64,000 bases of DNA from Heterodontus francisci (lineage: Eukaryota), in contig NC_090378.1 in the NCBI RefSeq assembly GCF_036365525.1, positions 115,677,593 through 115,741,592 of the forward strand, given 5' to 3'. The notes beneath the pieces are model-generated. The model ran no database searches. It was given only the letters and a program-made list of their open reading frames with translations, and was not told the DNA's origin. Made by a program: the position numbers and the translations under genes. Below are positions 29,511 through 64,000 of the stretch, piece by piece. The stretch's first letter is position 1, and every line of letters begins with the position of its first letter.

Positions 29511-29538
29511 GGTTTTTGTAAGGCTCTGTTTCACTGTG
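29511..29538 (-). promoter_or_regulatory. V(D)J recombination signal sequence with 12-bp spacer
   Basis: Minus strand reads CACAGTG-aaacagagcctt-ACAAAAACC: consensus heptamer and nonamer, exactly 12-bp spacer, directly 3' of the V coding end. Confidence 0.98.
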
Positions 29539-29836
29539 TAGGGGCTGCTGTATCCTTGCATACAGTAATAATTTGCAACATCCTCACTCTGTACATTACT
29601 GATTGTCAGAGTGTATTTGGTGTTCTGTTGACTGCCGGTGAATCGGTCAGATGTTCCTGTGAAACGATATGTTCCAGCATTGATCAGGAGAGTGGGTTTC
29701 TGACCTTCTCGTTGCTGATACCAAGAAACAAAATTGCTAACGTACTCGCTGGCCGTACAGGTGATAGTTGCGGTCTGTCCCAGTCTCACTGACAGTGTCG
29801 GTGGAGACTGGGTCATGATGATGTCTCCACTGATAC
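29539..29836 (-). CDS. IGKV: Immunoglobulin light-chain V exon, kappa (type III/NS4-like), germline unrearranged
   Basis: Acceptor ...ccctcag|GT ATC AGT GGA. Translates (G)ISG-DIIMTQSPPTLSVRLGQTATITCTASEYVSNFVSWYQQREGQKPTLLINAGTYRFTGTSDRFTGSQQNTKYTLTISNVQSEDVANYYCMQGYSSP, with both Cys, WYQQ and YYC intact. A 12-RSS is the kappa configuration. Confidence 0.95.
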
Positions 29837-30022
29837 CTGAGGGGTAACAGAGAAACAGAGTGAAGTAAGAACTGTGACAGAAATACCCTGCAAAATGAGA
29901 TATTGTTAGAGACAGTAACCGTTCCTCTTGTTTCAGCATTTTCCCTCCAATCACAAGTCAGTAGAATTGGACTGAAATAAACAGCAGGAAAATATTAACC
30001 GTGGAAGGAGAGAGATTTGTAC

Positions 30023-42731: not shown

Positions 42732-43170
42732 ATGTTTTGCAGCCAGCCTGCTCTTCTTAAAGGCAGGCTGTCCCTTTTAAAGGAAATATGAACTGAATAA
42801 TATTGATGTAATTTAAATGGTTTCAAACTGAATGCCAGGGGAGAAAAGGTTCCAGGGTGATGGATGTGATGCTTGAGGCATTAGCGGTAGAGGAGGGTCA
42901 GAGGAGCGATATCATGGATCCTTGGTGGGGGGGGGGGGGGTTGGTGGGCATGGTGTTCAGGAGGCATTGGTGGGAGTGTGAGGATGAGGTGCAGTATCTG
43001 ACTGTCAGAAGTGAATCCTGAGTGCCAGGGATTGGTATTGGGTGAGTGATGGGGGTATGGTACTCTGAGCAGCGGGAGAGGTTGGTGCTGTGCGGAGATT
43101 AGAATTAGAATTAGAACATTACAGCGCAGAACAGGCCCTTCGGCCCTCGATGTTGCGCCGATCATCTGAC

Positions 43171-46068
43171 CTACACTATTCCATTTTCATCCATATGTCT
43201 ATCCAATGACCGCTTAAATGCCCTTAAAGTTGGCGAGTCTACTACTGTTGCAGGCAGGGCGTTCCACGCCCCTACTACTCTCTGCGTAAAAAAACTACCT
43301 CTGACATCTGTCCTATATCTTTCACCCCTCAACTTAAAGCTATGTTCTCTCGTGTTTGCCATCATCATCCGAGGAAAAAGACTCTCACTATCCACCCTAT
43401 CTAACCCTCTGATTATCTTGTATGTCTCTATTAAGTCACCTCTCCTCCTCCTTCTCTCTAACGAAAACAACCCCAAGTCCCTCAGCCTTTCCTCGTAAGA
43501 CCTTCCTTCCATACCAGGCAACATCCTAGTAAATCTCCTCTGCACCCTTTCCAAAGCTTCCACATCCTTCCTATAATGCGGTGACCAGAACTGCACGCAA
43601 TACTCAAGGTGTGGCCTCACCAGAGTTTTGTACAGCTGCATCATGACCTCGTGGCTCCGAAACTCGATTCCCCTACTAATAAAAGCTAACACACCATATG
43701 CCTTCTTAACAGCCCTATTAACCTGGGTAGCAACTTTCAGGGATTTATGTACCTGGACACCAAGATCTCTCTGCTCATCTACACTACCAAGAATCTTCCC
43801 ATTAGCCCAGTACTCTGCATTGCTGTTACTCCTTCCAAAGTGAATCACCTCACACTTCTCCGCATTAAACTCCATTTGCCATCTCTCAGCCCAGCTCTGC
43901 AGCCTATCTATGTCCCTCTGTACCCTACAACACCCTTCGACACTATCCACAACTCCACCGACCTTCGTGTCATCCGCAAATTTACTAACCCACCCTTCTA
44001 CACCTTCATCCAGGTCATTTATAAAAATGACAAACAGCAGTGGCCCCAAAACAGAATCTTGCGGTACACCACTAGTAACTAAACTCCAGGATGAACATTT
44101 GCCATCAACCACCACCCTCTGTCTTCTTTCAGCTAGCCAATTTCTGATCCAAAGCTCTAAATCACCTTCAACCCCATACTTCCGTATTTTCTGCAATAGC
44201 CTACCGTGGGGAACCTTATCAAACGCCTTACTGAAATCCATATACACCACATCCACGGCTTTACCCTCATCCACCTGTTTGGTCACCTTCTCGAAAAACT
44301 CAATAAGGTTTGTGAGGCACGACCTACCTTTCACAAAACCGTGCTGACTATCGCAAATGAACTTATTCTTTTCAAGATGATTATAAATCCTATCTCTTAT
44401 AACCCTTTCCAACATTTTACCCACAACCGAAGTAAGGCTCACAGGTCTATAATTACCAGGGCTGTCTCTACTCCCCTTCTTGAACAAGGGGACAACATTT
44501 GCTATCCTCCAGTCCTCCGGCACTACTCCTGTCGACAATGACGACATAAAGATCAACAACAACGGCTCTGCAATCTCCTCCCTGGCTTCCCAGAGAATCC
44601 TAGGATAAATCCCATCTGGCCCAGGGGACTTATCTATTTTCACTCTTTCCAAAATTGCTAACACCTCCTCCTTGTGAATCTCAATCCCATCTAGCCTAGT
44701 AGGCTGTATCTCAGTAATCTCCTCGGCAACATTTTCTTTCTCTACTGTAAATACTGACGAAAAATATTCATTTAACGCTTCCCCTATCTCCTCTGATTCC
44801 GCACACAACTTCCCACTACTATCCTTGATTGGCCCTGTTCTAACTCTTATCATTCTTTTATTCCTGATATACCTATAGAAAGCCTTAGGGTTTTCTTTGA
44901 TCCTATCCGCCAATGACTTCTCGTGTCCTCTCCTTGCTCTTCTTAGCCCTCCCTTTAGATCCTTCCTGGCTAGCTTGTAACTCTCAAGCGCTCTAACTGA
45001 GCCTTCACGTCTCATCCTAACATAAGCCGCCCTCTTCCTCTTGACAAGCGCTTCAACTTCTTGAGTAAACCACGGCTCCCTCGCTCGACAACTTCCTCCC
45101 TGCCTGACAGGTACATACTTATCAAGGACACGCATTAGCTGCTCCTTGAATAAGCTCCACATTTCGATTGTGCCCATCCCCTGCAGTTTCCTTCCCCATC
45201 CTACACATCCTAAATCTTGCCTAATCGAGTCATAATTTCCTTTCCCCCAGCTATAATTCTTGCCCTGCGGTATATACCTGTCCCTGCCCATCGCTAAGGT
45301 AAACCTAACCAAATTGTGATCACTATCGCCAAAGTGCTCACCTACATCTAAATCGAACACCTGGCCGGGTTCATTACCCAGTACCAAATCCAATGTGGCA
45401 TCGCCCCTGGTTGGCCTGTCCACATACTGTGTCAGAAAACCCTCCTGCACACACTGGACAAAAACAGACCCATCTAAAGTACTCGAACTATAGTATTTCC
45501 AGTCAATATTTGGAAAGTTAAAGTCCCCCATAACCACTACCCTGTTACTCTCGCTCCTGTCGAGAATCATCTTCGCTATCCTTTCCTCTACATCTCTGGA
45601 ACTATTCGGAGGTCTATAGAAAACTCCCAACAGGGTGACCTCTCCTCTCCTGTTTCTAACCTCGGCCCATACTACCTCAGTAGACGAGTCCTCAAACGTC
45701 CTTTCTGCCGCTGTAATACTTTCCTTGATTAACAATGCCACACCTCCCCCCCCCCCTCTTTTACCCTCTTCTCTGTTCTTACTGAAACATCTAAATCCCG
45801 GAACCTGCAACATCCATTCCTGCCCCTGCTCTACCCATGTCTCTGAAATGGCCACAACATCAGGATCCCAGGTACCAACCCATGCTGCAAGCTCACCCAC
45901 CTTATTCCGGATGCTCCTGGCGTTGAAGTAGACACACTTTAAACCAAGTTCTTGCTTGCCAGTGCCCTCTTGCGTCCCTGTAACCTTATCCCCTACCTCA
46001 CTACTCTCAACAGCCTGGACACTGGAACTACAATTTAGGTTCCCATTCCCCTGCTGATTTAGTTTAAA
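43171..46068 (-). CDS. CR1 ORF2p (APE endonuclease + reverse transcriptase); frame open from 46068 with no upstream ATG
   Basis: YFNARSI, ISETW, GDFN and SDH endonuclease motifs; DFSKAFD and FADD RT motifs. PQG is mutated to PQD in this copy. The frame is stop-free up to the ORF1 overlap. Confidence 0.92.
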   Translation of the reverse strand, partial: FKLNQQGNGNLNCSSSVQAVESSEVGDKVTGTQEGTGKQELGLKCVYFNARSIRNKVGELAAWVGTWDPDVVAISETWVEQGQEWMLQVPGFRCFSKNREEGKRGGGGGVALLIKESITAAERTFEDSSTEVVWAEVRNRRGEVTLLGVFYRPPNSSRDVEERIAKMILDRSESNRVVVMGDFNFPNIDWKYYSSSTLDGSVFVQCVQEGFLTQYVDRPTRGDATLDLVLGNEPGQVFDLDVGEHFGDSDHNLVRFTLAMGRDRYIPQGKNYSWGKGNYDSIRQDLGCVGWGRKLQGMGTIEMWSLFKEQLMRVLDKYVPVRQGGSCRAREPWFTQEVEALVKRKRAAYVRMRREGSVRALESYKLARKDLKGGLRRARRGHEKSLADRIKENPKAFYRYIRNKRMIRVRTGPIKDSSGKLCAESEEIGEALNEYFSSVFTVEKENVAEEITEIQPTRLDGIEIHKEEVLAILERVKIDKSPGPDGIYPRILWEAREEIAEPLLLIFMSSLSTGVVPEDWRIANVVPLFKKGSRDSPGNYRPVSLTSVVGKMLERVIRDRIYNHLEKNKFICDSQHGFVKGRSCLTNLIEFFEKVTKQVDEGKAVDVVYMDFSKAFDKVPHGRLLQKIRKYGVEGDLELWIRNWLAERRQRVVVDGKCSSWSLVTSGVPQDSVLGPLLFVIFINDLDEGVEGWVSKFADDTKVGGVVDSVEGCCRVQRDIDRLQSWAERWQMEFNAEKCEVIHFGRSNSNAEYWANGKILGSVDEQRDLGVQVHKSLKVATQVNRAVKKAYGVLAFISRGIEFRSHEVMMQLYKTLVRPHLEYCVQFWSPHYRKDVEALERVQRRFTRMLPGMEGRSYEERLRDLGLFSLERRRRRGDLIETYKIIRGLDRVDSESLFPRMMMANTREHSFKLRGERYRTDVRGSFFTQRVVGAWNALPATVVDSPTLRAFKRSLDRHMDENGIV

Positions 46069-47000: not shown

Positions 47001-47504
47001 TATTCTAGATTCCCAACAAATCTACTGAAAAACCAAACGAAAAAAAAAAAGTCAAAACTTGTTCGCTTAGCAATCCGACGGACTGAACTTTTTAAATAAA
47101 AAGCTTACCTTTTCAACACACCAGAGTCCTTTTTTTTTTGGTTAGAGGAGGAGGGTGGGTGGGAGACACTACACGTGTAGTGTCTCGGGTACTGCCACTG
47201 CCCAAATAAATAGTTTTCCCTTACCCAGCAGTCCCCTGGTCCTCCGAAACAAAAGGGGATTAACTTGTAACTTACACTGAAATTGACCGCTCAGCTGTAC
47301 GTTCGCTCCGCACCTCGTTCTGTCAAAGCTGCTCCTCGCAAAAAGAAAAAGATTTTAAAACTGCCCAAATAAATAGTTTTCCCTTACCCAGCAGTCCCCT
47401 GGTCCTCCGAAACAAAAGGGGATTAACTTGTAACTTACACTGAAATTGACCGCTCAGCTGTAAGTTCGCTCCGCACCTCGTTCTGTCAAAGCTGCTCCTC
47501 GCAA

Positions 47505-50356
47505 AAATCTGCGGTGAGACCCCCTGCTGCCGATGATGTTGAGGCTGGCTATGGTTATCTTCATGTCAAAGGTACTTAAAACCCATCACCAACAGCTCAC
47601 TGTGAGGAGGGAGTGGAAGTGCACCTGGCCAGGAGCACTTCCACTCCCCCAGCAACCCATTGAGGAACACATTAAAACGGCGCCTCTCAACCAGTTTCAC
47701 GCCCGCGCGCTTGCCCGTTACCTTCAGGGCAGCACGGACAGACTGGATGATCAGCGCCAGATTCGACGAGCGGTCGAGGGCCAGCTGAACTTTATTGCGG
47801 GAGCCCCTGCAAACCGTGAGGAAATCCCGGAGTTCCGCCATGGGGATGAGAGGAGATTCGGTGGGAGGCACGAGGGACTCCACCACCTCACTGGCGATGG
47901 AATCAGGATCATCCTCCGTGCCCCACACCGAATCCCCATCCTCCTCCGGGTCGTCACCGCCAGCGGCCGACACGCCCACCGCACACTGTGGGGTGGACGT
48001 CCTGGCCGCGCCAGCTGGTCCCGCCTCCGTCACGATCCCACCCCCAGGATCGATGGCGGAGGAGTCCTCTCTGGGTTCTATTGTGAAACTGGAGCCTGTA
48101 GGCACCAGCGGTTCAGGACCTCCCTCTACCTCCGTCCCCAGGCCAATGAGTGGTCCAGGGGAGACAGACGTTCCCGACTCCGGAAAACCAGCCGGAGCCG
48201 AGACTGGAGGCGGAGAGAGGAGGCCATCTCCCGCTCCGCCTGCACCCACAGGCCCAGCAGATGGGGCAGCATTCTCGGTTATAACCGGGTCGGGTGTCTC
48301 TTGGTTGGTTGTGGACTCCAGCTGGGAGGGCCGACCCTCTGGGGCCTCGCCCTCCCCTTCACCCAGGGCACCCGACCCAGTAGCAGTGGCGGAATGGTCG
48401 GAGTCCCCAGGCTCCCCCACCACAAGCAGGGCCCCACTTACTCCTTCAGGATGGGGCCTCATGTACCGGGGCCTTCCCCTCCCCTCCATCCTGAGGAATA
48501 GGGAGCTCCTGCCCAGACTTTGTAGCCTTGGTGGTGGTGGTAGGGGAAACCTGGGGACCTGAGACAGGAGACAGCTCCCCTCCAACAGATGGGCCCTGCG
48601 CCTCAGGGCCCCTTATTACGTCTGTGGAGGGATGCCTTCTCCTCTTTTTCCCACCAGGGCGCAGAGGCTCAGAGACCTCCATGTCATCAGAGGCCTCCGC
48701 CTCCGAACTCTCTTTTTTCTTATTCACCCTGGGCCTGAGCCCACCCCTGGGGCAAATTGACTCCCCGAGATCGGGCTTTTCGCTGCGCTCAGACTCTGGT
48801 AGTGTTATGGTGTCCAGGGGACGCGCCTCTCGATGTTTATTTCTCCTCCGCGCCTTCCTTCCAGTTGGACGGTCACCCACCTCCCTGCCGGAGGCCGTGA
48901 AAACCACAGCCTCCGGTACCGACTGAATGGTATCTGGTGGAGGTGTGGGGTGGGAGGAGGTGCAGCTGCGCCACCCTGGGCCGCCAAGTTGGAGGTGGCA
49001 GCCGGGAGGTTGGGGCAGTTCTTACGAACATGCCCCACCCCCTTACAGACATGGCACCGCGGCCCATCCAAGGTCCAGAAGACGCGGTAGGCCGTCCCCT
49101 GGAATGCTACATTAAAGTGGCCCTCTGTCACCTCCTCCCGTGCCAGCTGCATGAATAACTGGCGGCGGAAGGAGTACACATGTCGGAGGCTGTTCTCCCG
49201 AAGACCGAGCGGGACTGGGGTGAGCCCCGTCTTTACCTCCCCCAGATGGTGCAGGTGGGGAAGGAGGAGCTCACCAGGAATGAAGGGCGGGACGTTGGAT
49301 AAAATGACCCTATGCGCAGTGGCCTCCAGGGGGTCCACTGGCAGAAAGGTCCCGCCCACGGTGAGCCCCTTGCTCAGAGCCAGGGACACCGCCCGCTCGG
49401 TCTTCAGGAATAACACTGCCTTCCCATACATTTTAGAGGCTGCAACAATAGCCGAAGGGCTGACAACCTCAGCCATTGCTTTCACACATGCCTCGATAGT
49501 CATGTTCGGGTGGACGTAGCTCTTGACTCCATGCTTAGATGTTATTAGCGCAAACGGTGACGGGGCAATAGGTGCAGCTGCAGCAGCCGCAGCAGCATAT
49601 GAATGGGAAGGCCCCGCCACCGGCGAAGAGGGGCTTGCCATGGGGTCGCAGAGCTACGCCCACCCCCAAGAAACAAAGCACACGACAGTTTTCTTTAACA
49701 CAAACAATATGATGGGGGAGGGGGGGATGGGAATAGAGGAGGATAGGGCTGAAAAGGACAAGGAGAGGAGAGGATAGGTGGCCGAGTGATGGAAGAGAGA
49801 GAACAGCTGCAAGGATGTTTCTTCAATTGGTGGTTGGAGCACCTTCCTGCAGAGTCGACAGTCCACTCTTCCAGTTAGGGGAGGGTTCTCGCCCGGGTCG
49901 GTTAGAGCCGCCCGATTCTCTCCCTTTTCTGTTGTTGTATAAGGATTTTCTTCAGCCGGGGAGCTCCAGCCGTCCCGAGCCACACAGTCGGGGGTGGGGA
50001 GGGAGCCCCTTTTGTGCAGGATGGCAGATAAACACAAGAGCTAGTACAGGGGCTCCCTATAGAATTTGGCAGCCCCACCCCTGGATCTTCCGGTGCCTTC
50101 TCCCTCCCCCAACAGTCCAAACAACCAACAGTTCTCTGGTGCTCCAACACCCACCTCTCCAAAATGACTCTCAGGTCTTCTTAGTCTTGAAAATGTGCAA
50201 CAGTTCCACAGTAAATACAGCTGTCTCCACTCGACAGTCACCTCTCTGCAGTAACTCCAGTCTCCTCGCTCCTCTCCAGTTGCAGTTGCAGCAACACAGG
50301 TGCAGCTGCTCCCCCTGATTGCAGACAGGAAGTGCTTCACAAATTGCCCAGCCAAT
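47505..50356 (-). mobile_element. Tx1-clade LINE copy A: 5' UTR, frameshifted ORF1, first ~20 codons of ORF2; 3' part lost at the CR1 junction
   Basis: ORF1 from 49641 (MASPSSPVAGPS..., CHVCKGVGHVRKNC zinc knuckle) is broken into three frames. ORF2 start MKITIASLNI at 47564. 5' end ATTGGCT abuts CCCG of the target repeat. Confidence 0.93.
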
Positions 50357-50428
50357 CCCGTGCTGTACCTGTCCTGGGAGTGTTTGATGGGGACAGTGGA
50401 GAGGGAGCTTTACTCTGTATCTAACCCA
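50357..50428. repeat. ~68-bp target repeat, unit 1
   Basis: CCCGTGCTGTACCTGTCCTGGGAGTGTTTGATGGGGACAGTGGAGAGGGAGCTTTACTCTGTATCTAACCCA; recurs at 51557-51622 and 57396-57440. Confidence 0.93.
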
Positions 50429-51538
50429 TTTTTTTTTTTATCTGGCCTTCAAGTCATTTATTGAGCAGATCAATTCAAAGCCCCAACACTTTCACCCCAG
50501 GACATAATCAAGGCAACTCCAAAGTGCAATTAGCAGCATCTAAATGACTGAGTCGACAAATCAAGTTTTGCATTAACTGTTTCCCAGAACAAGGTACATC
50601 ACTGCCATGAAATGTCAGCACTTCACCATGCAATTAATTATTAACCCATTCTATGCAATTTGGCTTTTTCTGTCAAGAGGAAGTGTTAACAGTTGAACAC
50701 AGGAACAATTAACAATTAAACTCCAAGAGTCTCTAAACAATTACATTAATACAATTAAGGCCACACCTTGGCCAAGTTTTATAGAAATCTGTATTGCTGC
50801 AAAATGAACATTTAAACATATCAGCACTATACAGACGTTACAGATAGAAATAAGCCATAATAGATTAAGACTGCATCAAAGTGTTGAAAAGAGTTTGCTC
50901 AGAAAACAGTTCCCGCCATGGACAATGAGGTCCTGCCAAAATCGATTTGCTTCAATTCCCACCTCCAAAGACATCATGGTATTGTTGTTGGTGGTGTTCT
51001 TGTTTTATGATTTGCAATGCCTGAAACACGCCAGCGGACAACATCACGATGAAGATTAGGAAGACAAGGATGCTCAGCACTGTGGTTGCAATGTTGAGTG
51101 CCCGGGCTGTAGACGCATAGTGCCGAGCTCCTTCGACATCTCCCACAACTTTCCGATCTCTAGACATGACCGAGAAAACCAGCGCCACGAATCCAAGGCA
51201 GCAGAAATTCATGTAGAAGAAGCTGAAGAGAGACCAGAGCAGGTGGTCCCGGATCGGGCGAACATTTGGGGCCAGGTTAATGATGGTGGACGGGACCGAC
51301 TGACCGTCCTCCTTCAGGCACTGGTAAGGGGAGGTGTGGCGATTCATCGGCACTTGGTCCGCTCTGTACTCCATCCTGGATACAGTGTCAGTGGGAGAGC
51401 GAAGTGCATGTGAAGCGCTCCCGATTCGGCAATTTATAGACTGGGGTGGAGCAAGAGACTGGAACCACCTCCAACAAACCAACTGACAGAGTCTGTCATG
51501 CTCCTGAGTTTTAATCAATCAGTTTACTTTCAGAATGT
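50429..51538 (-). other. Processed retrocopy of an IFITM-family mRNA (upstream segment, CDS, 3' UTR, poly(A))
   Basis: AATAAA at 50457-50462, 17 nt before an A11 tail (50429-50439). TAACCCA(T...) is duplicated on both sides (50422 / 51539). No intron. Confidence 0.88.
50952..51374 (-). CDS. IFITM: Interferon-induced transmembrane protein (IFITM/CD225 dispanin family), 140 aa, intact and intronless
   Basis: RDHLLWSLFSFFYMNFCCLGFVALVFSVMSRDRKVVGDVEGARHYASTARALN is the CD225 core, with the CC pair and GxxxG. N-terminal YQCL (YxxPhi) motif and C-terminal TM helix. Confidence 0.93.
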   Translation of the reverse strand: MEYRADQVPMNRHTSPYQCLKEDGQSVPSTIINLAPNVRPIRDHLLWSLFSFFYMNFCCLGFVALVFSVMSRDRKVVGDVEGARHYASTARALNIATTVLSILVFLIFIVMLSAGVFQALQIIKQEHHQQQYHDVFGGGN

Positions 51539-51556
51539 TAACCCATTTGTTTTTAT

Positions 51557-51622
51557 CTGTACCTGCCCTGGGAGTGTTTGATGGGGACAGTGCAGAGGGA
51601 GCTTTACTCTGTATCTAACCCG
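51557..51622. repeat. ~68-bp target repeat, unit 2
   Basis: CTGTACCTGCCCTGGGAGTGTTTGATGGGGACAGTGCAGAGGGAGCTTTACTCTGTATCTAACCCG followed by a T-tract. Confidence 0.93.
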
Positions 51623-51641
51623 TTTTTTTTTAATCTAACCC

Positions 51642-54600
51642 TATTTTTATTTCCAAGGTGGCCTTGATACCCAAGGCCCCTTTTATATATTCTATGTCGA
51701 GGGGGCCTTTATTCCTCAGGCCCCCTTTATAAACATACTTATATATTTTTTAATAACTTTATTAAAACCAGAAATAAACAAAAACTCAAATTAAAATGCC
51801 ATTCTCGGCGTCGACAATGCACTCCAGTCCCTGCGGTGCCCACCGGTCGCGGAAGGCCTCAAGCGTACCGGCGGACACCGCATGCTCCTTTTCCAGGGAC
51901 ACCCGGGCGCGAACGTAACCGCGGAAGAGGGGCAGGCAATCGGGGAGGACGGAACCCCCGATGGCCCGCAACCTGGACCTGTGAATTGCCACCTTGGCCA
52001 GGCCCAGGAGCAGACCGACGAGGAGATCCTCCTCCCGGCCCAAGCCCCTCCGCACCGGGTGCCCAAAGATCAGGAGCGTGGGACTGAAGTGCAGCCAGAA
52101 TTTGAGGAGCAGCCCCTTCAGATACTCAAAGAGGGGCTGCAACCTCGCACACTCCGTATAAACGTGGAAAACGGACTCGTCCAGGCCGCAGAAAGTACAG
52201 GCGGCCTGGGAGTCCGTGAACCTACTTAAAAGTCTATTGCACGGGACTGCTCTGCGCAGCACCCTCCATCCCAGGTCCCCGATGTAAATGGGGAAGACTC
52301 CCGCGTAGAGAGACCTCCATCGGGGTTTCCCCTCGCCGCCAGATGGCAACGCGGACCGCCAGGGCGTGTCCGGCCGGCTGACGAGGGCGAGGAAGTGGAG
52401 AGTGTGCAGGAGCAGCCCGTACAGGAAACCCCTCCGCACCGATTGGAATGGCACGGAGGGCATTTCCGAGAGGCGGCTCGGGTTGTGCGGGACCGGCTCC
52501 CAAGGAGGGACTCGGGGCCTGGGTCCGATGAGCAGTTCCGGCCAAGCGGGGGTCAGCTCGGCCGGGTTCGCTCCGCACTCCCGAGCCCCCTCGCAACCCG
52601 CAGTGAGGGGCGTCCCGGGGGTTTCGGCTACTCCTCCGCCCGCCGGACCGTCCCCGGAGTCGGCTGCCCGGACGGCCGAGGCGCTCTCCTCCGCCGGCAG
52701 TGGAGCGCCCTGACTGGAGGCGACCATGTTCCAGACTCGGAAAAGATCCCGGTAAAAGACAGGCAACTCCCTCAGAGAGGCGCGGCTAACATACTCCACC
52801 GGGAGCTGCGTGTCGTCTTGAAGGCAGTGACACTGGCGGAAAAAATACGTCGCCAGTGCACACCATCTGGGAGGACGATCGACGTACAAGTATCTCTGCA
52901 GGGTCCGAAGGCGGAGAGTCGCAGCCTGGGTGCGGACGCACACCAGCGACTGACCGCCCTCCTCAATCGGGAGACTCAGGACCGCGGCAGAGACCCAGTG
53001 TTTCCTCTTGCCCCAGAGGAAATCGACGAGTTTCTTCTGGATCTTGGTGGCAAATACAGGGGGCGGGGCCAAAGTGACCAACCGGTACCACAACATGGAG
53101 GCCACCAGTTGGTTTATGACCAACGCTCGGCCCCTGTAGGAAAGCACTCGGAGCATTCCTGTCCAGCGCCCCAGCCGAGCGGTGACTTTCGCCTCCAACT
53201 CCTGCCAGTTTGCAGGCCAGGCTTCCTCAGCGGGGCTAAGGTGGACTCCCAGATAGAGGAGGTGCGTGGTGCTCCACGCAAAAGGTGTCATCTCCTCCGG
53301 CAGGGAGTCCACCCGCCACTGACCCACTAGGAGTCCGTAACATTTCTCCCAGTTGATCCTCGCAGAGGACGTGGCAGAAAAGGTCTGCTGGCAGTCGCGC
53401 ACCCTCCGCAAGTCAACGGGATCTGTGATTGCGAGGAGCACGTCGTCGGTGTAAGCCGAGAGGACGACCCGCATGGCCGGCTCGCGCAGAGCCAATCCCG
53501 TCAACCTCCTGCGAAGCAGGCACAGGAAGGGCTCCACGCAGATGGTATACAATTGGCCGGACATGGGGCATCCCTGACGCACTCCTCTCCCAAAGCGAAC
53601 GGGCGCCGTCAAGGACCCGTTAACTTTGACTAGACACTCTGCGGCGGCGTATAAAAGTCGGACCCAGGCCAAAAAACGAGTCCCGAAATCGCTCGTCCTC
53701 CAGCAGCCGGTTGTTAAAGTGTCGGTACGCGGACCCCGCCCGCGTGCGGAGCGGCGTGAACTCAGACCACACCAAGCGGTGGTCCGAGCACGGCACCAGC
53801 CGCATGGAGGCCATTGAGACGCGGGAGGCGTACGCCTGCGAAATGTAGAGGCGGTCGATTCGCGACCCTCCTCTTCCAGACCTCCACGTGAAGGCGCTGG
53901 AGGCGGGATGGAGATTCCGCCAGACGTCCACCAAGTTAAGGGAGCTGATCAGTCCCCTCAACTTCTCCACCGACGCTTGGCCGTGCTGGGGACCGGAGCG
54001 ATCCCCCACCTCGAGGGTGCAGTTAAAATCCCCCCCGAGGATGATGCACTCGCCGCTATCGATGGAGCTCAAGAGAGCGGACACTTCTTCAAAGTAGCAC
54101 GCTTGCAACGCGCTAGGCCTGGGCGCGTGCACATTCACAAAGTGGAGCGGCACGCTACCCAGGCGAACGGCAAGGTGGAGCAAGCGGCCCGGCACTAGCT
54201 CCTTGACCCCCAAGATCTCCGGCTGAAAAGTCGGGGCCAACAAGATAGCCACCCCACTAGAAATAGGGGTGAGGTGACTTATGTAGACCCCACCCTGCCA
54301 CTCCAGGAGCCAGGTGGCTTCGTCTCCCGGAACGGTGTGGGTTTCCTGCAAAAAGCTCACCGCGTATCTCCCTTCCCTGAGGACTGAGAGATTGTGAAAT
54401 CTGCGGTGAGACCCCCTGCTGCCGTTGATGTTGAGGCTGGCTATGGTTATCTTCATGTCAAAGGTACTTAAAACCCGTCACCAACAGCTCACTGTGAGGA
54501 GGGAGTGGAAGTGCACCTGGCCTTCCACTCCCCCAGCAACCCATTGAGGAACACATTAAACCGGCGCCTCTCGACCAGTTTCACGCCCGCGCGCTTGCCC

Positions 54601-57148
54601 GCTTTCATAAGGGCGGCACGGACGGACTGGATGATCAGCGCCAGATTCGACCAACGGTCGAGGGCCAGCTGAACTTTATTGTGGCAACCCCTGCAAATCG
54701 CGAGGAAATCCCGGAGTTCCGTCGTAGGGATGAGGGGAGATTCGGTGGGAGGCATGAGGGACTCCACCACCTCACTGGCGATGGAATCAAGGTCATCCTC
54801 CGTGCCCCACACCGAATCCCCAGCCTCCTCCGGGTCGTCACCGCCAGCGGCCGACACATCCACCACACACTGTGGGGCGGACGTCCTGGCTGCACCAGCT
54901 GGTCCTGCCTCCGTCACGATCCCACCCCCAGGATCGATGGCGGAGGAGTCCTCTCTGGGTTCTACTGTGAAACTGGAGCCTGTGGGCGCCAGCAGTTCAG
55001 GACCCCCCTCTACCTCCGTCCCCAGGCCAATGAGTGGTCCAGGGGAGACAGAAGTTCCCGACTCCGGAAATCCAGCCGGAGCCGAGACCGGAGGCGGAGA
55101 GAGGAGGCCATCTCCCGCTCCGCCAGCACCCACAGGCCCAGCTGATGGGACAGCATTCTCGGTTATAACCGGGTCGGGTGTCTCCTGGTTGGTGGTGGAC
55201 TCCGGCTGGGAGGGCCGACCCTCTGGGGCCTCGCCCTCCCCTTCACTCAGGGCACCCGACCCAGTAGCAGTGGCAGAATCTGCCGCGTCCTCAGGCTCCC
55301 CCACCACAAGCAGGGCCCCACTTACTCCTTCAGGAGGGGCCTCATGTACCGGGGCCTTCCCCTCCCCTGCATCCTGAGGAATAGGGTGCTCCTGCCCGGA
55401 CTCTGTAGCCTTGGTGGTGGCGGTAGGGGAAACCTGGGGACCCGAAACAGGAGACAGCTCCCCTCCAACAGATGGGCCCTGCGCCTCAGGGCCCCTCGTT
55501 ACCTCTGTGGAGGGGTGCCTTCTCCTCTTTTTACCACCAGGGCGCAGAGGCTCAGAGACCTCCATGTCATTAGAGGCCTCCGCCTCCGCACCCTCCTTTT
55601 TTTTAGTCACCCTGGGCCTGAGCTCAGCCCTGGGACAGGTGGATTCCGTGACAACGGGCTTTGGGCTGAGCTCAGGCTCGGGTTGTTTCAATGTGTCCAG
55701 GGAACGCGCCTCTTGATGTTTCTTTTGCCTCCGCGTCTTCTTTCCACTCTGACGGGCACTCCCCTCCCCGCTGGAGGCTGTGAAAACCACAGCCTCCAGA
55801 ACCGACTGAGCGGTGTCTGTTAGATTGGTGAGGGGAGTGGGAGGAGGTACTGTGGAACCACCCTGGGCCGCCGAGGTGGAGCTGGCGGCCGGGAGGTTGG
55901 GGCAGTTCTTACGAACATGCCCCACACCTTTGCAGACGTGGCACCGCGCCCCGTCCGAGGTCCAAAAGACGCGGTCGGCCGTCCCCTGGAACTCCACATT
56001 AAATTGGCCTTCCGAGTCCTCCTCCTGCGCCAGCTACATAAATAACTGGCGGCGGAAGGAGTAGTTGGAGGCTGTGTTCCCGAAGACCAAGCCGGACTGG
56101 GGTCTTCCCCGATCTCACCTCCCCCATGTGGTGCAGGTGGGGAAGGAGGAACTCACTGGGAATAAAGGGCGGGACGTTTGATAACATTATCCGCTGCGCA
56201 GTGGCCCCTAGAGGGTCCACCGGCAGGAAAGTCCCACCCACAGTGAGCCCTTTATTCAGGGCCAGGGACACAGCCCGCTTGGTCTTCAGGAAGAACATAG
56301 CCTTCCCGTACATTTTTGAGGCTGCCACAATGGCCGAGGGGCCGACAACCTCGACCATTGCCTTTACACAGGCCTCTATAGACATATTGGGGTGGGGATA
56401 GCTCTTTACCCCATGGCTTGAAGTAATTAATTTAAAAGGTGACGGGGCCACACGGGCGGCCACAGAGGCTACAGCCGCATCGGTATGAGAAGGCCCCGCC
56501 ACCGGTGATGATGGGCTTGCCATGGCTCAAGAGCCAAACCCACCCCCAAATTGCAGGCAAGCAAACAAACAAACCAACTAGGAGGTTTGGGGAGAGGCTG
56601 AGGGTATACAGGAAATTGGAAAGACAGGCTGCAAGCGATGACTTTGCTTTTTTTTTCTCCTTAAAGGGTGGTACTCAGAGCACTGTAAACACTCCTGGTC
56701 TTCCGGTCTTTCGGTCTTCTGGTTGTGGGAGGGGTCTTCACCTGGGTCAGCCGAAAGCTGCCCAGGCTCTCGTTCAATCTTTATGTCTCTGTGGCCAGGC
56801 AGCTTCAGCTGACCCAGGCTGGGCAATTAGGGTGGGGAGGGAGCTTCCTTGTGTATTCAGTGTAATTGCACAGCTCCCTATAGTATTGTACAGCCCCCAC
56901 CCCTTGTTGTTCCGGCCTCTTCCACCTCCCACAACGCTCCAAATGAAATGAAAGTTTGGTGCTCGACACCCACCTCGAAATACAGCTTTTTTGTCCAAGT
57001 CTTTCCTCTGCAGCAAAGGCTGTTGAAAGGTTTTTTGCAGTTCCTTCCTCAGCACTCCCTCTCCAGCAGCACCTCCAGCAACTGACTGCAGCACTATCAG
57101 CTGCACCTCGTTGAGGCACTCAGTATTCCCAATCACCGAGGAGCCAAT
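51642..57148 (-). mobile_element. Tx1-clade LINE copy B, both ends present but defective
   Basis: 5' end ATTGGCT. ORF1 (56523-54489) has a 5-bp deletion near 56064. ORF2 (54456-51786) has a ~1.07-kb internal deletion at ~53673 and YADD changed to YTDD. 3' UTR and A-rich tail present. Confidence 0.95.
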
Positions 57149-57153
57149 CCCCG

Positions 57154-57372
57154 TTTTTTTTTTTAACTTTGCAAAACATAGCTTTATTTGTCGTGCAGAT
57201 ACACCGACAGTTTATGCAGTGCTGGAGGAAGCCATTGCGGTGCGTCTGGGCTTTGGGGTGGTCCCTTCACGGAATCCATTCCTGAATCTGCGATACACCA
57301 CCTTCAAGTGCCTCATGCGGCCTGTACCAGTTGTATTTCTCCTTTTGGCTTTAGTACTCCAGTTGTACTTCC
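57154..57372 (-). pseudogene. RPL37: 5'-truncated processed pseudogene of 60S ribosomal protein L37
   Basis: 57370-57212 translates [52 protein letters not shown] (C-terminal half of eL37). AATAAA at 57183-57188, A11 tail at 57154-57164, flanking TCCCCG duplication. Too short to appear in the ORF track. Confidence 0.95.
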
Positions 57373-57440: not shown

Positions 57441-57582
57441 TTTTTTTTTAAGGTGACCTTTATACCCCAGGCCCCTTTTATATATTTTTTGTCGAGGGGG
57501 CCTTTATTCCTCAGGCCCCCTTTATATACACGCTTATATTTTTAAAATAACTTTATTAAAACCAGATAAATAAAGAAAAAAC

Positions 57583-60500
57583 TCAAATTAAAATGCCATT
57601 CTCGGCGTCGACAATGCGCTCCAGTCCCTGCGGTGCCCACCGGTCGCGGAAGGCCTCAAGCGCACCGGCGGACACCGCATGCTCCTTTTCCAGGGACACC
57701 CGGGCGCGAACGTAACCGCGGAAGAGGGGCAGGCAATCGGGGAGGACGGAACCCCCGACGGCCCGCAACCTGGACCTGTGAATTGCCACCTTGGCCAGGC
57801 CCAGGAGCAGACCGACGAGGAGATCCTCCTCCCGGCCCAAGCCCCTCCGCACCGGGTGCCCAAAGATCAGGAGCGTGGGACTGAAGTGCAGCCAGAATTT
57901 GAGGAGCAGCCCCTTCAGATACTCAAATAGGGGCTGCAACCTCGCACACTCCGTATAAATGTGGAACACGGACTCGTCCAGGCCGCAGAAAGTACAGGTG
58001 GCCTGGGAGACCATGAACCTACTTAAAAGCCGATTGCACGGGACTGCTCTGTGCAGCACCCTCCACCCCAGGTCCCCGATGTAAAGGGGGAAGACTCCTG
58101 CGTAGAGAGACCTCCATCGGGGTTTCCCCTCGCCGCCAGATGGCAACGCGGACCGCCAGGGCGTGTCCGGCCGGCTGACGAGGTCGAGGAAGTGGAGAGT
58201 GTGCAGGAGCAGCCCGTACAGGAAACCCCTCCGCGCCGATTGGAATGGCACGGAGGGCATTTCCAAGAGGCAGCTCGGGTTGTGCGGGACCGGCTCCCGA
58301 GGAGGGTTTCGGGGCCTGGGTCCGATGAGCAGTTCCGGCCGAGGTGACACCCGCTCGGCCGGGATCGCCCCGCACTCCCGAACCCCCTCGCCACCTGCAG
58401 TGAGGGGCGTCCCGGGGGTTTCGGCTACTCCTCCGCCCGCCGGACCGTCCCCGGAGTCGACCGCCCGGACAGCCGAGGCGCTCCCCTCCGCCGGCGGGGG
58501 AGCGCCCTGACTGGAGGCGACCATGTTCCAGACTCGGAATAGATCCCAGTAAAAGACAGGCAACTCCCTCAGAGAGGCGCAGCTAACGGACTCCACCGGG
58601 AGCTGCGTGTCGTCTTGAAGGCAGTGACACTGGCGGAAAAAATACGTCGCCAGCGCACACCATCTGGGAGGACGCTCGACGTACAGGTATCTCTGCAGGG
58701 TCCGAAGGCGGAGAGACGCAGCCTGGGTGCGGACGCACACCAGCGACTGACCGCCCTCCTCGATCGGGAGACTCAGGACCGCGGCAGAGACCCAGTGTTT
58801 CCTCTTGCCCCAGAAGAAATCGACGAGTTTCTTCTGGATCTTGGTGGCAAATACAGGGGGCGGGGCCAAAGTGACCAACCGGTACCACAGCATGGATGCC
58901 ACCAGTTGGTTTATGACCAACGCTCGGCCCCTGTAGGAAAGCACTCGGAGCAGTCCTGTCCAGCGCCCCAGCCGAGCGGTGACTTTCGCCTCCAACTCCT
59001 GCCAGTTTGCCGGCCAGGCTTCCTCAGCGGGGCTAAGGTGGACTCCCAGATAGAGGAGGTGCGTGGTACTCCACGCAAAAGGTGTCATCTCCTCCGGCTG
59101 GGAGTCCACCCGCCACTGACCAACCAGGAGTCCGGAACATTTCTCCCAATTGATCCTCGCGGAGGACGCGGCAGAAAAGGTCTGCTGGCAGTCGCGCATC
59201 CTCCGCAAGTCAACGGGATCTGTGATTGCGAGGAGCACGTCGTCGGCGTAAGCCGAGAGGACGACCCGCATGGCCGGCTCGCGCAGAGCCAATCCCGTCA
59301 ACCTCCTGCGAAGCAGGCACAGGAAGGGCTCCACGCAGATGGTATACAATTGGCCGGACATGGGGTACCCCTGACGCACTCCTCTCCCAAATCGAAGGGG
59401 CGCCGTCAAGGACCCGTTAACTTTGACTAGACACTCTGCGGCGGCGTATAAAAGTCGGACCCAGGCCACAAAATGCGGCCCGAGTCCGAAAGCGCGCAGA
59501 GTCCCGAAAAGATAATCGTGATCCACCCTGTCGAACGCCTTCTCCTGATCGAGGGAGAGAAAGGCGACCGACTGACCAGTCCTCTGGGAAAGATGGATCA
59601 GGTCCCGGACCAGGTGGATGTTGTCCTGGATGGACCGGCCCGGGACCGTGTAGGACTGGTCGGGGTGGATCATGTGGGCCAGCACGGAGCCCAGGCGGGT
59701 AGACATAGCCCGGGCAAAGATCTTATAATCCGTGCTGAGGAGGGAGACCGGACGGCAGTTTTTAAGGAGGCGGAGATCGCCCCTCTTCGGCAGCAGGACG
59801 ATGACCGCCCTGCGCCACGAGAGGGGCATCTCCCCGGTCGCCAGGCTTTCCCCCAGGACCCGCGCGTAATCGTCCCCCAGGACGTCCCAGAACGCCCTGA
59901 GGAACTCCACGGTCAACCCATCCAGCCCTGGGGATTTGCCCCTCGAGAGCTGGTGGAGGGCACCAGTCAGTTCCGCCAACGTGAGCGGAGCCTCCAATCC
60001 TTCGGCGCTCTCATGGCTGACCTGCGGCAGGTCCTCCCACAAAACTCTGCGCGCATCCTCGCTGGACGGATCCGGAGAGAACAACGCACTGTAATAAGTC
60101 CGGACCAGGAGGCCCATTCCCTCCGGATCCATGATGGAGGATCCGTCGTCGGCCAGCAGCTCGACGAGCTGCTTACGGACCCCCCGCCATTTTTCCAGCG
60201 AGTAGAAGAAGGGTGAGGCGCGGTCCAAATCTTCCAGGATCTGGATCCGCAACCTCACGTACGCGCCTCGGGACCCTATGAGCTGCAGTTCCCTCAGCGC
60301 GCCCTTCTTCTCTTTGTACACCTGCCACAGGGCCGGGTCCACGACGGCATGACCGAGGCGGGACTCCAAGTCGAGCACCTCCCTCTCAAGGCGCCCGATC
60401 TCGGCTTCCCGCCTCTTGGTCGACCCCTTCGCGTACTCCTGACAGAAGACGCGGATGTGAGTCTTGCCCACATCCCACCATAGCCTCAAGGAGGGGAAGC

Positions 60501-61320
60501 CCCCCTGCTTCCTTCCCCCGTCGGCCCAGAATCGACAGAACGAGTCCCGAAATCGCACGTCCTCCAGCAGCCGGTTGTTAAAGTGCCAGTACGCGGACCC
60601 CGCCCGCGTGCGGAGCGGAGTGAACTCCGACCACACCAGGCGGTGGTCCGAGCACGGCACCAGCCGCATGGAGGCCGCCGAAACGCGGGAGACGTACGCC
60701 TGCGAAATGTAGAGGCGGTCGATTCGCGACCCCCCTCCTCCAGACCTCCACGTGAAGGCGCTGGAGTCGGGATGGAGATTCCGCCAGACGTCCACCAAGT
60801 TAAGGGAGCTGATCAGTCCCCTCAACTTCTCCACCGACGCTTGGCCGCGCTGGGGACCGGAGCGATCCCCCACCTCGAGGGTGCAGTTAAAATCCCCCCC
60901 GAGGATGATGCACTCGCCGCTATCGATGGAGCTCAAGAGAGCGGACACTTCTTCAAAGAAGCGCGCTTGCAACGCGCCGGGCCTGGGCGCGTACACATTC
61001 ACAAAGTGGAGCGGCACGCTACCCAGGCGAACGGCGAGGTGGAGCAAGCGGCCCGGCACTAGCTCCTTGACCCCCAAGATCTCTGGCTGAAAAGTCGGGG
61101 CCAACAAGATAGCCACCCCACTAGAAATAGGGGTGAGGTGACTCATGTAGACCCCACCCTGCCACTCCAGGAGCCAGGTGGCTTCGTCTCCCGGAACGGT
61201 GTGGGTTTCCTGCAGAAAGCTCACCGCGTATCTCCCTTCCCTAAGGACTGAGAGATTGTGAAATCTGCGGTGAGCCCCTCTGCTGCCGTTGATGTTGAGG
61301 CTGGCTATGGTTATCTTCAT
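57583..61320 (-). CDS. Tx1 ORF2p, 1245 aa: APE endonuclease, reverse transcriptase, C-terminal CCHC
   Basis: SLNING, LQETH, GGDFN, RIDR, SDH; SPGLDGL, DQEKAFD, RQG, YADD; CTFCGLDESVFHIYTEC. Confidence 0.96.
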   Translation of the reverse strand: MKITIASLNINGSRGAHRRFHNLSVLREGRYAVSFLQETHTVPGDEATWLLEWQGGVYMSHLTPISSGVAILLAPTFQPEILGVKELVPGRLLHLAVRLGSVPLHFVNVYAPRPGALQARFFEEVSALLSSIDSGECIILGGDFNCTLEVGDRSGPQRGQASVEKLRGLISSLNLVDVWRNLHPDSSAFTWRSGGGGSRIDRLYISQAYVSRVSAASMRLVPCSDHRLVWSEFTPLRTRAGSAYWHFNNRLLEDVRFRDSFCRFWADGGRKQGGFPSLRLWWDVGKTHIRVFCQEYAKGSTKRREAEIGRLEREVLDLESRLGHAVVDPALWQVYKEKKGALRELQLIGSRGAYVRLRIQILEDLDRASPFFYSLEKWRGVRKQLVELLADDGSSIMDPEGMGLLVRTYYSALFSPDPSSEDARRVLWEDLPQVSHESAEGLEAPLTLAELTGALHQLSRGKSPGLDGLTVEFLRAFWDVLGDDYARVLGESLATGEMPLSWRRAVIVLLPKRGDLRLLKNCRPVSLLSTDYKIFARAMSTRLGSVLAHMIHPDQSYTVPGRSIQDNIHLVRDLIHLSQRTGQSVAFLSLDQEKAFDRVDHDYLFGTLRAFGLGPHFVAWVRLLYAAAECLVKVNGSLTAPLRFGRGVRQGYPMSGQLYTICVEPFLCLLRRRLTGLALREPAMRVVLSAYADDVLLAITDPVDLRRMRDCQQTFSAASSARINWEKCSGLLVGQWRVDSQPEEMTPFAWSTTHLLYLGVHLSPAEEAWPANWQELEAKVTARLGRWTGLLRVLSYRGRALVINQLVASMLWYRLVTLAPPPVFATKIQKKLVDFFWGKRKHWVSAAVLSLPIEEGGQSLVCVRTQAASLRLRTLQRYLYVERPPRWCALATYFFRQCHCLQDDTQLPVESVSCASLRELPVFYWDLFRVWNMVASSQGAPPPAEGSASAVRAVDSGDGPAGGGVAETPGTPLTAGGEGVRECGAIPAERVSPRPELLIGPRPRNPPREPVPHNPSCLLEMPSVPFQSARRGFLYGLLLHTLHFLDLVSRPDTPWRSALPSGGEGKPRWRSLYAGVFPLYIGDLGWRVLHRAVPCNRLLSRFMVSQATCTFCGLDESVFHIYTECARLQPLFEYLKGLLLKFWLHFSPTLLIFGHPVRRGLGREEDLLVGLLLGLAKVAIHRSRLRAVGGSVLPDCLPLFRGYVRARVSLEKEHAVSAGALEAFRDRWAPQGLERIVDAENGILI

Positions 61321-61352
61321 GTAAAAGGTACTTAAAACCCTTCACAAACACC

Positions 61353-63391
61353 TCACTGTGAGGAGGGAGTGGAAGTGCACCTGGCCCTCCACTCCCCCAG
61401 CAACCCATTGAGGAACACATTAAAACGGCGCCTCTCAACCAATTTCACGTCCGCACGCTTGCCCGCTTTCTTCAGGGCGGCACGGACGGACTGGATGATC
61501 AGCGCCAGATTCGACCAACGGTCGAGGGCCAGCTGAACTTTATTGCGGCAACCCCTGCAAGCCGCGAGGAAATCCCGGAGTTCCGCCGTGGGGATGAGAG
61601 GAGATTCGGTGGGAGGCATGAGGGACTCCACCACCTCACTGGCGATAGAATCAAGGTCATCCTCCATGCCCAACACTGAATCCCCATCCTCCTCCGGGTC
61701 GTCACAGCCAGCGGCCGACACATCCACCACACACTGTGGGGCGGACGTCCCGGCTACGCCAGCTGGTCCTGCCTCCGTCATGATCCCACCCCCAGGATCG
61801 ATGGCGGAGGAGTCCTCTCTGGGTTCTGTTATGAAACTGGAGCCTGTGGGCGCCAGCAGTTCAGGACCCCCCTCCACCTCCGCCCCCAGGCCAATGAGTG
61901 GTCCAGGGGGGACAGACGTTCTCGACTCCGGAAATCTAGCCGGAGCCGAGACCGGAGGCGGAGGGAGGAGGCTACCTTCCGCTCCACCAGCACCCACAGG
62001 CCCAGCAGATGGGGCAGCATTCTCAGTTTTCACCAGGTCGGGTGTCTCCTGGTTGGTGGTGGACTCCGGCTGGGAGGGCTGGCCCTCTGGGGCGTCGCCC
62101 TCCCCTTCATTTAGGGCACCCGACCCAATAGCAGTGGCGGAATGGGCGGCTTCCCCAGGCTCCCCCACCACAAGCAGGGCCCCACTTACTCCTTCAGGAG
62201 GGGCCTGTGTACCGGGGCCATCCCCTCCCCTCCATCCTGAGGAATAGGGAGCACCTGCCCGGACTTTGTAGCCTTGGTGGTGGCAGTAGGGGGAACCTGA
62301 GGACCAGAAACAGGAGACAGCTCCCCTCCAACAGATGGGCCCTGCACCTCAGGGCCCTGTGTTATTTCTGTGGAGGGGTGCCTTCTCTTTTTCGCACTTG
62401 GGCGCGGAGACTCAGAGACCTCCATGTCATCAGAGGCCTCCGCCTCCACTTTCTTTTTTTCCTTTCTTGTCACCCTCGGCCTGAGCCCAGCCCTGGGACA
62501 GGTGGATTCCATGGGAATGGGCTTTGGGCTGAGCTCAGGCTCGGGTTGAGTCAAAGTGTCCAGGGGACGCGCCTCATGATGTTTCTTTTTTCCCCGCGTC
62601 TTCCTTCCGCTCGGATGGACGCTCCCCTCCCCGCCGGAGGCTGTGAAAACCACAGCCTCTGGAACCGACTGAGCGGTGTCTATTGGATGTGTTGGGGGAG
62701 TGGGAGGAGGTGCTGTGGAACCACTCTGGGCCGCCGAGGTGGAACTGGCGGCCGGGAGGTTGGGGCAGTTCTTACGAACATGCCCCACCCCCTTGCAGAC
62801 GTGGCACCGCGCCCCGTCCAAGGTCCAAAAGACGCGGTAGGCCGTCCCCTGGAACTCCACATTAAATTGGCCCTCCGTGTCCTCCTCCCGCGCCAGCTGC
62901 ATAAATAACTGGCGGCGGAAGGAGTAGACATGTTGGAGGCTGTGCTCCCGAAGACCAAGCCGGACTGTGGTGATCCCCGACCTCACCTCCCCCAGATGGT
63001 GCAGGTGGGGGAGGAGGAGCTCACTGGGAATGAAGGGTGGGACGTTGGACAACATTATCCGATGCACAGTGGCCCCCAGAGGGTCCACTGGCAGGAAGGT
63101 CCCCCCCACAGTGAGCTCTTTACTCAGGGCCAAGGACACCGCCCGCTCGGTCTTCAAAAAGAACACAGCCTTCCCAAACATCTTTGAGGCCGCAACAATG
63201 GCCGAGGGGCCGACAACCACGGCCATTGCCTTAACGCAGGCCTCAATAGACATGTTGGGGTGGGGATAGCTCTTCACCCCATGGCTGCATGTCAACAATT
63301 TAAAGGGTGACGGGGCCACGTGGGCAGCCACAGAAGCTGCAGCTGCGTAGGTAGTAGAGGGCCCCGCCACCGGTGATGAGGGGCTTGCCAT
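61353..63391 (-). pseudogene. Tx1 ORF1 (zinc-knuckle protein), interrupted by a 1-bp deletion near 62206
   Basis: The 401-aa and 272-aa ORFs join into one ORF1 when aligned to copy B (ggcctcatgtacc versus ggcctgtgtacc). CHVCKGVGHVRKNC knuckle present. Confidence 0.9.
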
Positions 63392-64000
63392 GATCTAAGA
63401 GCTAAACCCACCCCAAATTGTGGACTTGCACACAAATATCAGCGATTCACCAAAAATATTGAATGTGTATTGAAACAAAGCAAACAACAACAGGTTAGTG
63501 GAGAGGCTGAGGTAATAGAGGAGAGGCAAAGGCAGGCTGTATGGGATGACTTGCTTTCCGGAGGTGGTGCTCACAGTACACTTAAAACAGTCTTTGAAGT
63601 TGGTCTTCCGGTCTTCTGGTTGGGGGAGTCGTCTTCACCTGGGTCAGCTGAAGCTGCCCAGGCACTATCTATCCCCTTCCGTCTGTTTAGCTGGGCAGCT
63701 TCAGCTGACCAAGGCTTGGCAATTGGGGTGGGGAGGGAGCTTTCCTGTGTGCTTGTGCAGCAGCACAGATTCCTGTTGAATTGGCAGCCCCACCCCTTGT
63801 TGTTCCAGCCACTTGTTCCTCCCCCAACAGTCCAAAGTAAATTACTGGTGTTCAGCACCCACCTCCAGACAAAGCCTTGTTTCCAAAAAAATGTCTCTTT
63901 CTTCTCTTTAATGGAGACTGTTGTTGAAGTTTCACCTCTGCTTAGTTGTAGCTGCTCTCCCTTGCTCAGTGTAGCTCCTCTCTCCACCTCTGCAACCTCC

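Follow-up and report, generated by a model that had tools for sequence, protein, structure and literature searches.

Retrogenes derived from IFITM3 occur in many copies per genome in primates and rodents, some of them with intact ORFs, and IFITM retrogenes are common in primates, according to passages of PMC10415907. In part of PMC4772013, about 3% of the expressed retrocopies of human and mouse are reported to have inherited a parental promoter, by a route in which transcription begins at an upstream promoter, so that the RNA includes a second promoter further downstream, which later drives the retrocopy. Tx1 elements are described as target-specific in a section of PMC3747384, and crocodilian SINEU-3, which depends on Tx1, forms sequential tandem insertions at one target repeat in the account given in passages of PMC4494074. 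Non-mammalian retrocopies were attributed to CR1 or Tx1, by correlation of their counts with Tx1/CR1 content, in the 2026 preprint 10.64898/2026.06.26.734816, the relevant passages of which are silent on site specificity. For human IFITM3, passages of PMC8994042, PMC9813432 and PMC9716219 identify SVKSRD (residues 81-86) as a Golgi-egress motif, report Golgi accumulation of the single mutants from S81 to D86, and describe K83 as ubiquitinated and PIP3-binding. Retrogenes of IFITM, promoter inheritance and Tx1 elements with a specific target are thus known individually; in the open-access literature searched, we found neither host mRNAs described at a Tx1 target nor the ~68-bp repeat considered below.

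Here we describe an IFITM locus in the window, by which we mean the whole stretch of 64,000 nucleotides of shark DNA that was analysed. The locus is a processed retrocopy of a shark IFITM. The reading that we prefer, and regard as quite probable, is a spliced and transcribed retrocopy, likely made by Tx1 reverse transcriptase and inserted in trans at the junction of a repeat unit, likely with a TATA promoter inherited from its parent. The copy consists of the following features:

50952..51374, minus strand: IFITM (CD225/dispanin A) ORF, 140 aa, intronless (ORF list, domain match and parent alignment)
50440..50951, minus strand: 3' UTR of 512 nt, matching exon 2 of parent A (contig C14) up to the cleavage site
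50462-50457, minus strand: AATAAA poly(A) signal (from the sequence)
50429..50439, minus strand: poly(A) tail of 11 nt, not in the genomic DNA of the parent (from the sequence and comparison with the parent locus)
51375..51539, minus strand: parent-derived 5' UTR and proximal promoter (match to parent A)
51438-51433, minus strand: TATAAA, with the predicted start near 51411
51531-51521, minus strand: imperfect ISRE-like site, one base short of consensus

Genome searches with the window IFITM gave 22 protein and 25 DNA matches, and a cluster of two-exon IFITM genes, parent A among them, was found on contig C14. The exons of parent A lie ~20 kb apart with the ends AAG/GT...AG/TCT, and its intron falls exactly at SVK/SRD, the Lys codon preceding the donor and Ser-Arg-Asp following the acceptor; in the window copy the lost-intron junction lies between 51165 and 51164. 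The DNA of parent A beyond AATAAA contains no A-tract. The first-pass annotation had proposed a retrogene with a 3' UTR of ~510 nt, AATAAA and poly(A), and this was borne out by the intron-bearing parent on C14, the exact intron loss and the non-genomic poly(A), the three end features being found as 512 nt, 50462-50457 and 11 A at 50439-50429. The opposite case, a natively intronless parent with an encoded A-tract, was also checked, and neither part of it holds.

The uninterrupted ORF of 140 aa was found, as claimed, at 51374-50952 on the minus strand and contains a CD225 domain (PF04505, E 1e-25, 90 bits) at residues 40-108; its product is already in the protein collection as a predicted protein. 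Three further proteins in the databases, labelled Heterodontus francisci by their sources, are identical to translations from the genome searched, two of them to C14 genes and one to a copy on C9. The CC pair, GDVEG, SPYQCL and the Met in SVMSRD are all present as first reported, and C58, C59, G78 and G82 are the majority residue among the 120 homologues listed. The N-terminal YxxPhi motif reads Y17-Q-C-L in the window copy and Y-Q-G-L in the parent, with a new Cys at position 19, and the second Tyr of the parent, Y15, is gone. The codon of the K70M change lies at 51167-51165 on the minus strand, and the SVKSRD Golgi-egress motif of the window copy is not intact at Met70. Lys was found at position 70 in 119 of the 120 homologues listed and Met in the window copy alone. 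As this near-invariant lysine is gone, the retention of antiviral motifs that had been claimed stands in part only, for CC, GxxxG and Y17. The His/Gln-rich C-terminal extension noted earlier is present as well; it is also found in the parents, sibling copies and other shark IFITMs and is thus ancestral and not specific to the copy.

Judged by the motif, Lys70 corresponds to K83 of human IFITM3, and by analogy with the human K83A mutant the K70M change likely slows exit from the Golgi. The human mutants carry an engineered alanine, whereas the shark change from Lys to Met is natural. The product of the ORF is most likely a membrane-inserted IFITM with altered sorting. Membrane insertion would proceed through the intact amphipathic helix, the CC pair and GxxxG, and a block of viral fusion is possible. 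We consider the chances about even that the protein is made and selected.

Compared with parent A, the window copy showed ~91% identity (BLAST), 93% over aligned CDS columns, with a dS of 0.11 and a dN/dS of 0.56. On the lineage of the copy we counted 6 synonymous and 9 nonsynonymous changes (p 0.21 relative to the numbers of sites), and the ten sibling copies together have 28 and 68, respectively (p 0.39 against the window lineage). Since these ten siblings show 4 disruptions in 2052 nt, the chance of an intact 420-nt frame by drift is 0.44. Purifying selection on the ORF was non-significant by pairwise dN/dS, lineage dN/dS and the sibling survival control, all of which have low power at 140 codons. 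In a tree of the IFITM copies (13 rows, each of 190 nt or more, with most forks open) the terminal branch of the window copy measured 0.039, compared to 0.018-0.065 for siblings, and among the 120 homologues listed there was no Met-bearing orthologue. The earlier wording of a young or selected retrogene fared poorly on both counts. Youth is weak at ~91% identity and dS 0.11, where an RPS27a retrocopy of the same LINE array reaches 98-99%; for selection, dN/dS of ~0.5 was non-significant and the intact-frame chance was 0.44.

These values bear directly on the alternative that survives best, namely that the locus arose in this way and with this promoter, yet is a retropseudogene that is transcribed while it drifts neutrally, K70M being a loss of function and the protein useless. 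To this we give slightly less than an even chance. An intact frame at a chance of 0.44 by the sibling control, a dN/dS not significantly below neutral, a terminal branch similar to those of the siblings and the loss of a lysine kept in 119 of the 120 homologues listed would all be in keeping with drift; the dN/dS of ~0.5 and the intact CC, GxxxG, Y17, TATA and poly(A) signal argue in the other direction, as do Gln-repeat alleles in DNA and RNA, with the copy seemingly on both haplotypes and both transcribed.

On both sides the copy is bordered by units of a ~68-bp repeat, and further out by LINEs:

51557..51621, minus strand: upstream unit of the ~68-bp repeat
51539..51556, minus strand: 5' junction, an 11-nt A-rich filler (51556-51546), after which the repeat start recurs over 7 bp (51545-51539)
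50357..50428, minus strand: downstream unit of the ~68-bp repeat, with the 5' end of Tx1 copy 3 directly after it
57441..64000, minus strand: Tx1-clade LINE copy 1, running slightly beyond the window end, its 3' end at a partial repeat unit
61341-57583, minus strand: ORF2 of copy 1, open over 1252 aa, EN and RT
51630..57165, minus strand: Tx1-clade LINE copy 2, ORF2 split over two frames, 5' end approximate
47505..50356, minus strand: Tx1-clade LINE copy 3, with 5' UTR, ORF1 and the start of ORF2, truncated

One 38-mer of the repeat unit has 13,961 exact occurrences in the 6.0-Gb genome, mostly in short tandem runs, and this number is a lower bound on unit copies; the reversed 38-mer, used as a control, gave 0 matches in the same genome. 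The flanking duplication that had been described does exist as a 75-bp match (96%) between 51631-51557 and 50437-50363. It consists of two units of the repeat, and we did not accept it as the target-site duplication, given the 13,961 or more exact 38-mer copies of that unit; a match of 65-75 bp is indistinguishable from pre-existing repeat units. Only 7 bp resemble a true duplication, and from the sequence the target-site duplication is likely 51545-51539 with its partner at 50428-50422. In RNA-like runs the repeat is hugely abundant, with a summed contig depth near one million, and therefore appears to be widely transcribed. An array of at least 52 kb was observed on contig C19 (88260912-88313341; L058-L079), in which the first ~20 bases of the unit alternate with short A-tracts, a pattern such as recurrent insertion of poly(A) alone into the target might leave.

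All three Tx1 copies of the window have one end at the repeat, the 3' end in copies 1 and 2 and the 5' end in copy 3, and they form a head-to-tail array with repeat units between them. The poly(A) end of copy 2 abuts the upstream repeat unit, and beyond the window end, past copy 1, lie three repeat units and the RPS27a retrocopy. The ORF2 of these LINEs is Tx1-related and contains an APE endonuclease and an RT; in comparison with Xenopus Tx1 ORF2, identity was 64% in the RT region and 54% and 46%, respectively, in the two main blocks, and a protein-family atlas search returned RT and EN families as the sole names. Judged from these matches, the flanking LINEs are of the target-specific Tx1 clade. 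The frameshifts ascribed to the neighbouring LINEs were seen in copy 2, with ORF2 over two frames, but not in copy 1, where ORF2 is open for 1252 aa.

The repeat was found at the 5' junction of all four poly(A)-tailed IFITM copies (window, L002, L007 and L042). Beyond the IFITM tail follows a Tx1 5' region in L002 and L042, and the repeat in the window copy and L007. L002 (C9:10087792-10088426) is a near-full IFITM retrocopy between the repeat and the Tx1 5' region, and is annotated as a protein (P0005) by one source, though its first Met is missing and its CC pair reads CS. By comparison, 0 of 9 ribosomal-protein retrocopy loci (L048, L094-L098, L102, L103 and L106), ascertained independently of the repeat, contain the unit (Fisher p 0.0014 for 4/4 against 0/9). 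The young RPL21 and RPL29 retrocopies (L048 and L102) are among these nine loci, and a family search with PF00428 returned one exon only. The proposal that all retrocopies use the repeat was rejected on the 0/9 result, and for the same reason there are at least two retroposition routes.

Additionally, a pattern search for AATAAA, poly(A) and the repeat start gave 53 matches. Of these, 38 belong to one satellite array on C19, one is the window copy, five resemble Tx1 tails as judged by the matched text alone, and nine were examined in their flanking DNA. Seven of the nine proved to be ends of host-like mRNAs, flanked by the repeat on either side; one was repeat-derived and one consisted of Tx1 pieces. 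These seven extra inserts were ascertained through the repeat on their 3' side, and on the 5' side the flank ends exactly at the last bases of the unit in four, 13-16 bases into the next unit in two, and a few bases short in one. RPS27a and Asterix were the inserts at the repeat named by Pfam, and two further ones we take to be RPL29- and RPS13-like, with no Pfam match on pieces of 28 aa; the RPL29-like piece showed a 97% match to a last exon with a splice acceptor. The RPS27a retrocopy (L084:875-1453, C8) lies ~280-860 bp beyond position 64000, at the head of the same Tx1 array, has an inverted ubiquitin part, and is 98-99% identical to its intron-bearing parent over the part searched. The retrocopy of Asterix, of the PAT complex (L086:834-1616), lies between units and has an inverted coding part and an open frame of 101 aa. 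At L082 (C29, ~20558000-20559000) two successive poly(A)-ended inserts were observed between repeat units.

Other mRNA ends at the same position point to site-specific trans-mobilisation by Tx1. The main mechanistic rival is template switching, in which the Tx1 RT jumps from its own RNA to the IFITM poly(A) tail and a single chimera is inserted. Such a chimera would account for L002 and L042, where the IFITM tail leads directly into a Tx1 5' region, and the Tx1 5' end in the window lies one repeat unit downstream of the copy; but that unit stands whole between the copy and Tx1 copy 3, and L007 and most of the remaining mRNA inserts (L080, L081, L083 and L087) have the repeat on both sides with no Tx1 body in the DNA examined. 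Sequential tandem insertion is moreover known for the Tx1-dependent SINEU-3 (passages of PMC4494074), and we consider template switching unlikely.

Under trans-mobilisation by Tx1, the Tx1 ORF2p would nick at the start of a repeat unit and prime on the poly(A) tail of the mRNA. The template would be a long-leader parental transcript from the second TATA box of the parent at -465, i.e. 465 nt before the ATG, and the cDNA would have been truncated at -165. A broader proposal is that in sharks the Tx1 LINE acts as a site-directed gene-copying machine with the 68-bp repeat as a genome-wide landing pad for retrogenes, and that the window copy was born with an interferon-type promoter as an IFITM variant in the Golgi-exit motif. 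This we put forward tentatively, as somewhat more likely to be wrong than right.

Similarity to parent A extends upstream to 51539, ~100 nt beyond the TATA box, so that the copy holds ~165 nt of parental upstream DNA. The ISRE-like site at 51531-51521 is identical in the window copy and parent A. At -510 to -450 from the ATG of parent A (L090) we observed a partial duplicate of the core promoter, including a TATA box; a run of short repeated motifs stands between this duplicate and the main IFITM promoter.

Transcription was assessed in the contigs of runs X5-X8, which come from one sample of one study and whose RNA status was guessed. These runs behave as RNA, since the bins at 51442-51549 had zero cover in all four, compared to a depth of 5.5-7.5 in both DNA runs, and since spliced Lys-type contigs occur at great depth. 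The share of the copy's words found was 51% in X5, 49% in X6, 21% in X7 and 13% in X8, where all other IFITM loci examined could together supply 16%; in runs X9-X16, from two other organisms, it was 4-11%. Substitution-free contigs of X5 and X6 cover 50596-51357 in pieces, two of the X5 pieces having small gaps that also occur in DNA, and an X5 contig (51069-51196) spans the Met codon. RNA cover reached 51398 (X7), a little short of the TATA box on its downstream side, and never went beyond the 51388-51441 bin. As a hint of level only, the contig depth of copy-type against parent-type was 1827 against 1011 in X5 and 2511 against 4963 in X6, and, again as a mere hint, the copy-type depth was far lower in X7 (227) and X8 (49). 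No copy-type RNA contigs over 50440-50595 were found in X5 and X6, which may reflect earlier polyadenylation or filtering. A check for copy-specific transcripts thus turned up copy-type sequence, including the Met codon, in X5-X8. From the position of the TATA box and the cover, the parental TATA promoter likely drives the copy.

On either side, contigs from DNA pass without a break out of copy-type sequence into the flank (X1, 50985-50413 and 51254-51578). The RNA alleles were also found on DNA contigs, namely an extra base at 50664 and a 3-nt Gln-repeat variant at 50980, the latter in both states, and because two Gln-repeat alleles occur in DNA and RNA, each haplotype seems to bear the copy and to transcribe it. 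No DNA contig across the exon junction with the Met base was seen among the contigs listed. An origin of the Met-type RNA in a twin gene with an intron, outside the assembly, the window copy being silent, is very improbable: the window copy does group with other retrocopies apart from the present parent A (an open fork, 82/82), and no listed DNA contig spans the junction with the Met base, but the DNA depth is flat (~5-8) over unique parts with contigs unbroken at both insertion junctions, there is no loose end at 51164/51165, the RNA allele with the extra base at 50664 sits on a contig with the poly(A) and the repeat, and the distal UTR and ISRE-like region are shared with parent A alone. It is the unbroken DNA contigs of flat depth carrying the alleles of the RNA that disfavour such a twin.

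Eleven IFITM fragments without poly(A) were observed on different contigs, with varied 5' ends and unrelated flanks (L003, L004, L006, L010, L012, L013, L014, L016, L021, L043 and L044). Ten of them end within the window-equivalent positions 50925-50920, 27-32 nt past the stop codon; the splice junction is spanned in 4 of the 11, and the repeat is nearby in none. The shared end suggests a fixed site of RNA cleavage or priming and a second retroposition route, and in folding of the region at the fragment ends a structural boundary was not evident. The fragments resemble the tailless retropseudogenes described for therians and a lizard in passages of PMC5322556.

Elsewhere in the window, the Ig V gene that had been noted near the retrocopy was confirmed by one exon:

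29532-29846: Ig V-set exon (domain match)

Nothing that we observed ties it to the window copy beyond proximity. Directly downstream of this exon lies a 28-kb tandem array (1198-29505) of a 61-bp unit with 465 copies and 92% matches. Two LINE RT segments (30999-33059 and 43101-45161), 98% identical and inverted, surround a 44-bp tandem array. The element of 43101-45161 has an ORF1 with a GDSL-esterase domain and adjoins Tx1 copy 3 at a 163-bp duplication (47197-47507).

Taken in combination, the observations point to a vertebrate route of retroposition that delivers host mRNAs to a predictable sequence. It can now be tested which reverse transcriptase makes the retrocopies of non-mammalian vertebrates, and whether a target-specific LINE takes any poly(A) RNA in trans; a near-intact ORF2 and a defined 68-bp target offer a ready assay system. 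For immunology, the locus provides a shark IFITM that is expressed and in which the K83-equivalent has changed naturally; work on this position has otherwise relied on engineered mutants.

With the mammalian IFITM3 retrogenes, as presented in passages of PMC10415907, the shark copy shares the intronless structure, AATAAA, poly(A), a target-site duplication and a place off the canonical cluster. It differs from them in that it is found in a shark, at a fixed repeat site beside Tx1 rather than scattered by L1, and in that it carries the parental promoter and has lost the K83-equivalent. Similarly to the retrocopies described in part of PMC4772013, parental sequence lies upstream of the start of the copy, whereas the start was here taken from contig cover and not from CAGE, and the promoter is TATA-type with an ISRE-like site. 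As in Tx1 and SINEU-3, insertion is sequence-specific and into a multicopy repeat, arrays are split by pieces of the target, and non-autonomous RNAs use the same target. Unlike in those systems, it is host mRNAs that are carried here (IFITM, RPS27a, Asterix and others), and they go to a shark tandem unit of ~68 bp that did not turn up in the papers searched.
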